Source: a virus
Taxonomy: Duplodnaviria; Heunggongvirae; Uroviricota; Caudoviricetes
IMG/VR virus record: IMGVR_UViG_2529292906_000019
Span: 1-44,062 of that record
Reading direction: 5' to 3' (one strand)
DNA length: 44,062 nt
Below, in pieces: positions 18,432-19,184 of the stretch. The position numbers and the translations under genes were made by a program. The first letter of the stretch is position 1; every line of letters begins with the position of its first letter. Under the pieces are notes generated by a model. It was given only the letters and a program-made list of their open reading frames with translations, made no database searches and was not told the origin of the DNA.

Positions 18432-19184
18432 CTATTTACGCGGAGGCGGCACTTGAATCTCCGGCCAGCATTTGCAGTTCGGCAGGCATCCGGCATGCCC
18501 GGTCATTTCGTCCAGAGTGGGTGGGTTATCCCAGCGCACGAACTTATTCCTCATTTTGTAGTGGGAATCGCGGGTACCAGCGCCTTCAATGCGCCACCAG
18601 TAACCTTCTGAGCCAATCGACTCGGCGCGCGCCTGGGTGAGTGCTGTGGTAGCCCTGCCGATTTCGGTGCGGGCGATCATCTTCGCGCGGCTCTCCGCTA
18701 CGTCGCCGGACTCCATAATCATCCGGTAGAGCGCGTCGGGGCGTTCACCGTTGATGACAGCTTCCATTGCACGCGCCTGGATGTCACGGACGCGATCGGC
18801 AGCCTCCAGCGGCAGAGACTTAATCAGCTGCACCTGGCGGGACACTATGTCCTGTGCCACGAACCCCACCGGCGTATTGCCGACGACATCTCGCAGCCCC
18901 TCGGAGATATCCTGCGATACCGAGCGCCACTGGCTCCACTCCTCCTGCTCAACCTGCAGGAACATGCGTTTAGCGACCCGGTCGGCCCAGTCGTCAATCA
19001 GCAGGGAGTAATCCATCAGCCGGGCGTTAACCTGCTCGGCGCTCGCTTCCGAACCATCGTAGGAACCAGTTACTATCGCGCCGCACTGACGCGCTATCTC
19101 CTGTAGGCTTTTCTGATACTGGCGCTCCGATTTGCGGCGGAGGTTCGGTTTCAGATTCAGCCTCCTCCCATTCTGCTTTGGCAT
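18432..19184 (-). CDS. head morphogenesis protein (MuF / SPP1 gp7-like)
   Basis: C-terminus ...GYWWRIEGAGTRDSHYKMRNKFVRWDNPP...HAGCLPNCKCWPEIQVPPP; ATG at 19184 with AAGGA upstream; it overlaps the portal 3' end by ~157 nt, and the track ORF extends to 19277. Confidence 0.6.
   Translation of the reverse strand: MPKQNGRRLNLKPNLRRKSERQYQKSLQEIARQCGAIVTGSYDGSEASAEQVNARLMDYSLLIDDWADRVAKRMFLQVEQEEWSQWRSVSQDISEGLRDVVGNTPVGFVAQDIVSRQVQLIKSLPLEAADRVRDIQARAMEAVINGERPDALYRMIMESGDVAESRAKMIARTEIGRATTALTQARAESIGSEGYWWRIEGAGTRDSHYKMRNKFVRWDNPPTLDEMTGHAGCLPNCKCWPEIQVPPPRK

Follow-up and report, generated by a model that had tools for sequence, protein, structure and literature searches.

In the phages SPP1 and Mu, the portal gene is directly followed by a gene for a head morphogenesis protein of the PF04233 family (Phage_Mu_F, referred to as MuF below), and the two genes overlap. 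In SPP1, gene 6 (portal) and gene 7 (gp7) share 44 nucleotides (nt), and in Mu the adjacent genes for gp29 (portal) and gp30 (F, the founding member of PF04233) share 20 nt. SPP1 gp6 binds gp7 strongly and carries few copies of it into the procapsid (PMC6316719). Here we analyze the corresponding gene pair in a 44,062-nt stretch of Caudoviricetes DNA (IMG/VR virus record IMGVR_UViG_2529292906_000019, positions 1 to 44,062; the whole stretch is called the window below). Its portal and MuF genes follow the same order as in SPP1 and Mu, with MuF likewise in the +1 frame relative to the portal gene, and they have 158 nt in common (19027-19184, minus strand).

Beyond the length of the overlap, SPP1 differs from the window in its portal protein, which belongs to a different Pfam portal family, and we know of no report of an SPP1 portal tail motif that is encoded across MuF codons. 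The overlap in Mu differs in that start and stop signals suffice to account for its 20 nt, whereas in the window ~52 codons of each protein are shared and both frames show selection. Further counterparts are the head modules of the E217/Pam3/XM1 type, which comprise TerL, a Phage_portal_3 protein, MuF, a DUF2213 protein, a cement protein, and a PF09950 major capsid protein; the window contains exactly the same set. Published annotations of these phages mostly begin MuF downstream. Compared with modules of this type, the combination of a ~150-nt overlap and a portal tail ending in Arg-Trp-Phe (RWF) is seen only in the enterobacterial group described here and in Salmonella phage SEN34.

Out-of-frame overlaps are classical in phages, for example phiX174 genes B, K, and E inside A, C, and D, and lambda Rz1 inside Rz. 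As in the window, these overlaps consist of DNA that is read in two frames, with suppressed synonymous variation and with segments that are apparently partly disordered or biased in composition. However, the phiX174 and lambda cases are fully embedded genes, often in tiny genomes, whereas the pair studied here consists of two large and ancient structural genes of a 40-kb tailed-phage genome, with the end of one overlapping the start of the next. Literature searches on the portal/MuF overlap or on this head module returned nothing specific, the only related item being an SPP1 genome review on the gp6-gp7 interaction. Based on the comparisons below, we consider it very likely that two separately translated head genes share the 158 nt in a genuine dual-coding overlap. 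This is an enlarged case of a known arrangement, represented by the portal/MuF overlaps of Mu and SPP1 and by the out-of-frame gene overlaps of phages, and not a new class of mechanism.

Conservation and selection in the shared stretch

The portal gene (19027-20511, minus strand) starts with an ATG at 20511, ends with the stop codon at 19029-19027, and encodes a protein of 494 amino acids (aa) of the Phage_portal_3/DUF1073 family. The gene for the MuF or SPP1-gp7-like head morphogenesis protein (18432-19184, minus strand, 250 aa) starts at the ATG at 19184-19182, and the shared stretch specifies portal residues ~443-494 together with MuF residues 1-53. An initial annotation of the window had described an overlap of ~157 nt in different frames and a MuF frame that stays open upstream to 19277. 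The difference in frame is confirmed, with MuF at +1, and the exact length is 158 nt; the MuF frame is indeed open at 19277, where its first TTG lies (open reading frame (ORF) 18432-19277 with this codon included), but it reaches 19490 from stop to stop.

Relatives of the gene pair were found by megablast in E. coli prophages (78-90% identity) and in one deposited phage (77%), and protein-guided scans detected it at 32 loci of bacterial genomes and 80 loci of viral contigs. The hosts and sources of these loci include Enterobacter, Citrobacter, Photorhabdus, Serratia, Pantoea, Morganella, and Xenorhabdus, as well as IMG/VR viral contigs, and tblastn matches span MuF residues 1-250 in ~110 loci. 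Both frames are open, and in the same phase, in all 114 loci that have both genes in view, with an overlap of 137-164 nt between the conserved ATG and the portal stop. As one of two readings, the initial annotation had offered a genuine overlap with a real acidic portal tail, and it had proposed a comparison with homologues; the homologues have the same overlap in all 114 loci and fully support this reading. The deposited phage (locus L004, OM284015.1) is listed as 'Elizabethkingia phage EKP1' from Elizabethkingia anophelis (Flavobacteriia). Given its 77% nucleotide identity to enterobacterial prophages across portal and MuF, its host label or sample purity looks doubtful.

For a more detailed comparison, we aligned the region between -300 and +600 relative to the MuF ATG in 98 distinct sequences, and the counts and diversities given below refer to this set. 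Through column 884, the alignment contains a single indel, a 3-nt deletion in one sequence other than that of the window, and the remaining gaps are confined to the last 15 columns. Stop codons in the portal frame occupy 1 of 4410 overlap codons, compared with 538 of 13132 codons (4.1%) past the portal stop, and the third frame is interrupted at 406 of 4410 codons (9.2%) inside the overlap. In the MuF frame, stops are absent from the ATG onward (0 of 19110 codons) but number 284 among the 9800 codons before it. Judged from these counts, the openness of the overlap exceeds chance.

The distribution of variation changes at both borders of the shared stretch. Nucleotide diversity at portal third positions falls from 0.495 upstream of the MuF ATG to 0.155 in the overlap (Mann-Whitney p = 3e-14), where these sites become MuF second positions, and the peak of variation shifts to MuF third positions. 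The diversity of the latter is 0.285 in the overlap and rises to 0.477 past the portal stop (p = 4.5e-7). In agreement, within the overlap the MuF frame has the lowest pairwise ratio of non-synonymous to synonymous variation (pN/pS, 0.36), followed by the portal frame (0.93) and the third frame (1.27); in their non-coding stretches, the portal and MuF frames have values of 1.1-2.6. The pS of MuF is itself depressed in the overlap (0.39 versus 0.63). These patterns indicate purifying selection on both frames of the shared stretch, with stronger selection on the MuF frame; the constraint on the portal frame is weaker and focused on the motifs Pro-Pro-Pro (PPP), GDS, and RWF.

We also compared the portal stop with candidate MuF starts in eight distant phages that carry the same head module. 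The candidate overlaps measure 14 nt in Leptolyngbya JY16, 32 nt in Pseudomonas KLEP17-4, 68 nt in Bordetella IFTN9 (if the first ATG is used), 74-80 nt in Acinetobacter AbTJ, 77 nt in Edwardsiella ZHS, 149 nt in both Klebsiella Mulock and Salmonella SEN34, and 170-176 nt in Burkholderia Magia. Every portal/MuF pair examined has the +1 phase, that is, an overlap length of 2 modulo 3 (loci L117-L124, Mu as L125, and SPP1 as L126). The deposited MuF starts of Mulock, SEN34, AbTJ, and Magia lie downstream of the conserved homology.

Initiation of MuF

The MuF ATG (19182-19184, minus strand) is preceded at a distance of 8 nt by the Shine-Dalgarno sequence AAGGA (19193-19197, minus strand), which lies within portal codons for Lys-Asp. 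The initial annotation had favored this start, and the relatives support it: the ATG is present in 89 of the 98 sequences, and each of these 89 carries an xAGG core at the Shine-Dalgarno site. The same core is found in one of the nine sequences that lack the ATG, the other eight having GAAG in its place. In the Photorhabdus-type group, the MuF ATG lies 15 nt farther upstream. Two bases of the initiation region coincide with portal third positions. G 19195 in the Shine-Dalgarno sequence has a diversity of 0.15, compared with ~0.5 at neighboring third positions, and T 19183 in the start codon, which separates GAT from GAC in the portal frame, is near-invariant (0.17). In addition, an in-frame stop precedes the ATG by two codons in 44 of the 98 sequences, so that in these the ATG is the first possible start. 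We rejected two TTG codons as starts, the one at 19277 for lack of a Shine-Dalgarno sequence and the one at 19190 for a spacing of 2 nt, and the upstream stop in 44 of the 98 homologues also disfavors both.

A different reading is that MuF starts downstream, either at the ATG at 18965 (177 aa) or at the ATG at 19016, and that conservation of the MuF frame farther upstream is a by-product of portal coding. Several observations are consistent with it. For the E. coli homologues, the Prokaryotic Genome Annotation Pipeline (PGAP) chooses as start the equivalent of the internal Met74 of MuF (18963-18965, minus strand), which yields 177-aa proteins (WP_053271620.1, WP_465040551.1, WP_136698653.1) separated from the portal gene by a gap of 61-70 nt; this methionine is conserved, and the Pfam domain lies wholly downstream of it. 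However, portal coding alone predicts the opposite of the observed pattern, in which variation within the overlap peaks at MuF third positions and portal third positions are constrained. The 61-nt interval that separates the portal stop from the ATG at 18965 is also coding-like, with the periodicity of the MuF frame, a pN/pS of 0.40, and no indels, and the MuF frame is free of stops from the upstream ATG onward, in contrast to the sequence before it. Moreover, the alignments of distant MuF homologues with 26-53% identity (from Hafnia, Salmonella SEN34, Acinetobacter, Burkholderia, Bordetella, Pseudomonas, and a cyanophage) begin at query residue 19-21, which lies ~100 nt ahead of the portal stop, and in the window neither the ATG at 19016 nor that at 18965 has a Shine-Dalgarno sequence upstream. 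We therefore regard a downstream start as very unlikely. The initial annotation had considered a conserved downstream start as an objection to the overlap; the ATG at 18965 is indeed conserved, but as an internal methionine codon within coding-like sequence.

We also looked for conserved RNA structure over the internal start and found none. The consensus structure has a predicted energy of -3.7 kcal/mol with no compensatory pairs, and a coupling of the unmasking type was rejected. Database entries for the MuF protein range from 177 to 250 aa, which shows that gene callers disagree on its start. The three 177-aa PGAP models are located at 3237-3770 in locus L001, 3042-3575 in L002, and 3041-3574 in L003 (all E. 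coli prophages), equivalent to window positions 18432-18965.

The portal tail and remaining alternatives

In the shared stretch, the portal protein forms an acidic, proline-rich tail that terminates in RWF, and MuF residues 1-53 form a basic N-terminus followed by the first predicted helix. The three proline codons of the tail (19135-19143, minus strand) are read as Leu-Arg-Arg in the MuF frame and correspond to the near-invariant alignment columns 341-349. The RWF motif (CGA TGG TTC; 19051-19059, minus strand) is encoded across MuF Tyr42-Asp43-Gly44-Ser45. All 98 sequences have CGA and TGG, and 97 of them have TTC; the tails of the relatives end in (L/I)RWF plus 0-7 residues in the same frame. 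The motif can be kept only if MuF Tyr42, Asp43, and Gly44 are encoded by TAC, GAT, and GGT. Consistently, these codons are found in 98, 98, and 97 of the 98 sequences, respectively, although in MuF-only sequence GAT accounts for 45% of the Asp codons and GGT for 28% of the Gly codons. Thus, fixed synonymous codons in MuF hold the portal motif.

These codons bear directly on the proposal that only MuF is functional in the overlap, and that the portal tail past residue ~462 is neutral read-through, conserved by way of the constraint on MuF. The near-neutral pN/pS of the portal frame is compatible with such a tail, as are its probable disorder (solved portal homologues align only up to residue 462) and the wide differences in the length and sequence of portal tails among distant relatives. 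Yet a neutral tail would not account for the reduced pS and third-position diversity of MuF within the overlap, nor for the use of GAT and GGT far above their frequency elsewhere. A change from TAC to TAT at MuF Tyr42 is silent in MuF and would create a stop in the portal frame, but it was never observed, and portal-frame stops are almost absent from the overlap. RWF is also shared with the portal of Salmonella phage SEN34, whose MuF is 52% identical. Taken together, we give a neutral tail little credence.

Features of the two segments recur in distant relatives. Several distant portals share a ...DEDIE.A segment followed by an acidic, proline-rich stretch, and the distant MuF proteins have a region in common from residue ~19. 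Acidic tails with at least two prolines occur in the portals of Bordetella IFTN9, Acinetobacter AbTJ, Salmonella SEN34, and Pseudomonas KLEP17-4, and acidic portal tails paired with basic MuF N-termini are also found in distant relatives with short overlaps.

A programmed +1 frameshift in the overlap could in principle generate a portal-MuF fusion, besides or instead of independent MuF initiation. The constant +1 phase of MuF in every relative examined would suit this mechanism, the PPP run in the overlap could pause ribosomes, and a fusion would answer the need of MuF to reach the portal vertex (PMC6316719). On the other hand, the conserved ATG with its covarying Shine-Dalgarno sequence favors independent initiation, and conservation of the portal C-terminal motif implies that normal termination matters. 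The portal stop itself occurs at five positions in differing contexts, with no conserved shift site at the stop, and in a check by eye, which was not systematic, no known +1 shift motif was seen (CCC-stop, CUU-stop; cf. prfB and SPP1 gp17.1*). We consider a frameshift highly improbable.

Long overlaps are often artefacts of annotation or sequence, and the initial annotation, which claimed three homopolymer lesions elsewhere in the window, had raised the possibility of an assembly or sequencing indel by which the portal frame would wrongly run on past the MuF start; its probability is close to nil, given that the window is collinear and indel-free (-300 to +585 nt) with 97 other distinct sequences from independent assemblies, that all relatives share the frame of the tail up to its conserved end, and that the portal length of 494 aa matches the 492 aa of homologues. 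By these comparisons, the portal 3' end of the window is intact.

Several points nevertheless weigh against a genuine dual-coding overlap of 158 nt with the proposed start. At codon 9, right after GGAGG, a second in-frame ATG occurs in about half of the homologues (the window has CTG there), and MuF residues 2-5 are variable. In the relatives with this second ATG, the exact initiation codon is less certain, and the overlap would be 125 instead of 149 nt. The pN/pS of the portal frame reflects a weak average constraint on the tail. An AlphaFold2 model of the 250-aa MuF, based on a 16-sequence alignment, reached a mean predicted local distance difference test score (pLDDT) of 49.6 and a predicted template modeling score (pTM) of 0.36; it is of low confidence and provides no structural support for residues 1-73 in the fold. 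All support is comparative, the sequences are related, so that a tally like 89 of 89 does not reflect independent events, and those without the ATG belong mostly to one Photorhabdus-type clade. Finally, we infer, rather than observe, the expression coupling and the origin of the overlap that are proposed below.

Head module, proposed expression, and implications

The genes around the overlap form a complete head module on the minus strand. TerS (21758-22465) and TerL (20514-21722) are followed by the portal and MuF genes, a 67-aa ORF (18164-18367), and the genes for the DUF2213 protein (16944-18107), the cement protein (16414-16932), and the PF09950 major capsid protein (15453-16403). The portal ORF would span 19027-20541 if begun at a GTG. 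We place its start at the ATG at 20511 (MSRKNRHNG...), as homologues begin with MSRKKRQ and PGAP uses the same methionine in the E. coli homologues. The portal protein matches PF06381 (Phage_portal_3) with 341.5 bits over profile positions 2-355 of 357. Among solved portals, it matches that of Pam3 (8HDS, E 1.5e-30) as well as 9JLF and 9L01 (E ~1e-24), with alignments that extend to query residue 462, and the solved E217 portal is likewise homologous; from this homology a dodecameric portal ring at one capsid vertex is expected. MuF matches PF04233 with 50.4 bits (cut-off 29.6; E 4.4e-13; profile positions 2-109 of 112) over residues 134-239, i.e., in its C-terminal half. A search of solved structures with MuF gave no meaningful match (best E-value 0.59).

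The slot between the MuF and DUF2213 genes (18108-18431) is variable. The 67-aa ORF of the window has no Pfam match, while E. coli LHM10-1 carries a 'tRNA-OTHER' feature (L003, 3591-3700) and E. coli GZ2408P a 139-aa ORF (L002, 3614-4033) in the same slot; an ARAGORN scan of the whole window found no tRNA. Facing the overlap, an 85-aa antisense ORF (19132-19389, plus strand) most likely arises incidentally from base composition and dual coding. In a set of E. coli hits with a similar TerL (H10-H21), PGAP labels the next gene, where the portal is expected, as 'anti-CBASS protein Acb1 family protein', a label that may need correction.

Two further overlaps were noted on the minus strand of the window. 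At 10664-11277, an ORF for a Phage_TAC_15 tail assembly chaperone (10852-11277) overlaps an ORF with a C-terminal DUF6889 match (10664-11041). This G/GT-type layout is the usual one for programmed frameshifting, and no lesion has to be assumed. At 1673-2745, ORFs of 191 and 220 aa, neither of which has a Pfam match, overlap by 166 nt, which could represent another long overlap or one of the homopolymer lesions claimed in the initial annotation.

For the portal/MuF pair, the conservation pattern suggests the following mode of expression. Ribosomes translating the portal gene would run to the stop at 19027 and complete the acidic, proline-rich tail ending in RWF, and other ribosomes would initiate independently at AAGGA-N8-ATG (19197-19182) in the +1 frame to produce the 250-aa MuF. 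The internal start, 158 nt before the portal stop, would place MuF synthesis on the portal message and probably links it to portal synthesis, at a lower level. A MuF output linked to and below that of the portal would fit a portal-bound protein present in few copies, as in SPP1.

The overlap may have arisen by growth at both ends, as the small sample of related phages suggests. The portal tail would have extended over older MuF coding sequence, gaining RWF, and the basic MuF N-terminus would have extended upstream over older portal sequence. Purine-rich acidic codons (GAR), when read one base later, specify Lys, Arg, or Asn, and one stretch of DNA may therefore readily hold both an acidic tail and a basic N-terminus.

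The function of the two segments can be addressed more tentatively. One guess is that the RWF tail serves in docking, with MuF, terminase, or scaffold as the partner. It is conceivable, though we think it unlikely, that the shared DNA encodes both docking segments of the portal-MuF complex, namely the acidic, proline-rich RWF tail and the strongly basic MuF N-terminus. The occurrence of acidic tails and basic N-termini in distant relatives with short overlaps, and the portal-MuF interaction established for SPP1, are compatible with this idea. If so, the two halves of an interface would be locked into one stretch of DNA, inseparable by recombination and forced to co-evolve, and MuF synthesis would also be tied to translation of the portal.

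Regardless of function, the placement of the MuF start affects how this protein is represented. To avoid the overlap, the PGAP model drops 73 residues of MuF in E. coli prophages. Since this start is used in a common enterobacterial prophage family, structure prediction, homology searches, and proteomic databases work with a shortened MuF. The pair also provides a well-sampled natural case in which ~150 nt are used for dual coding by two conserved structural genes of tailed phages. With overlaps that range from 14 to 176 nt among related phages, this group would offer a usable system for studying how gene overlaps grow and how a shared sequence constrains two proteins.

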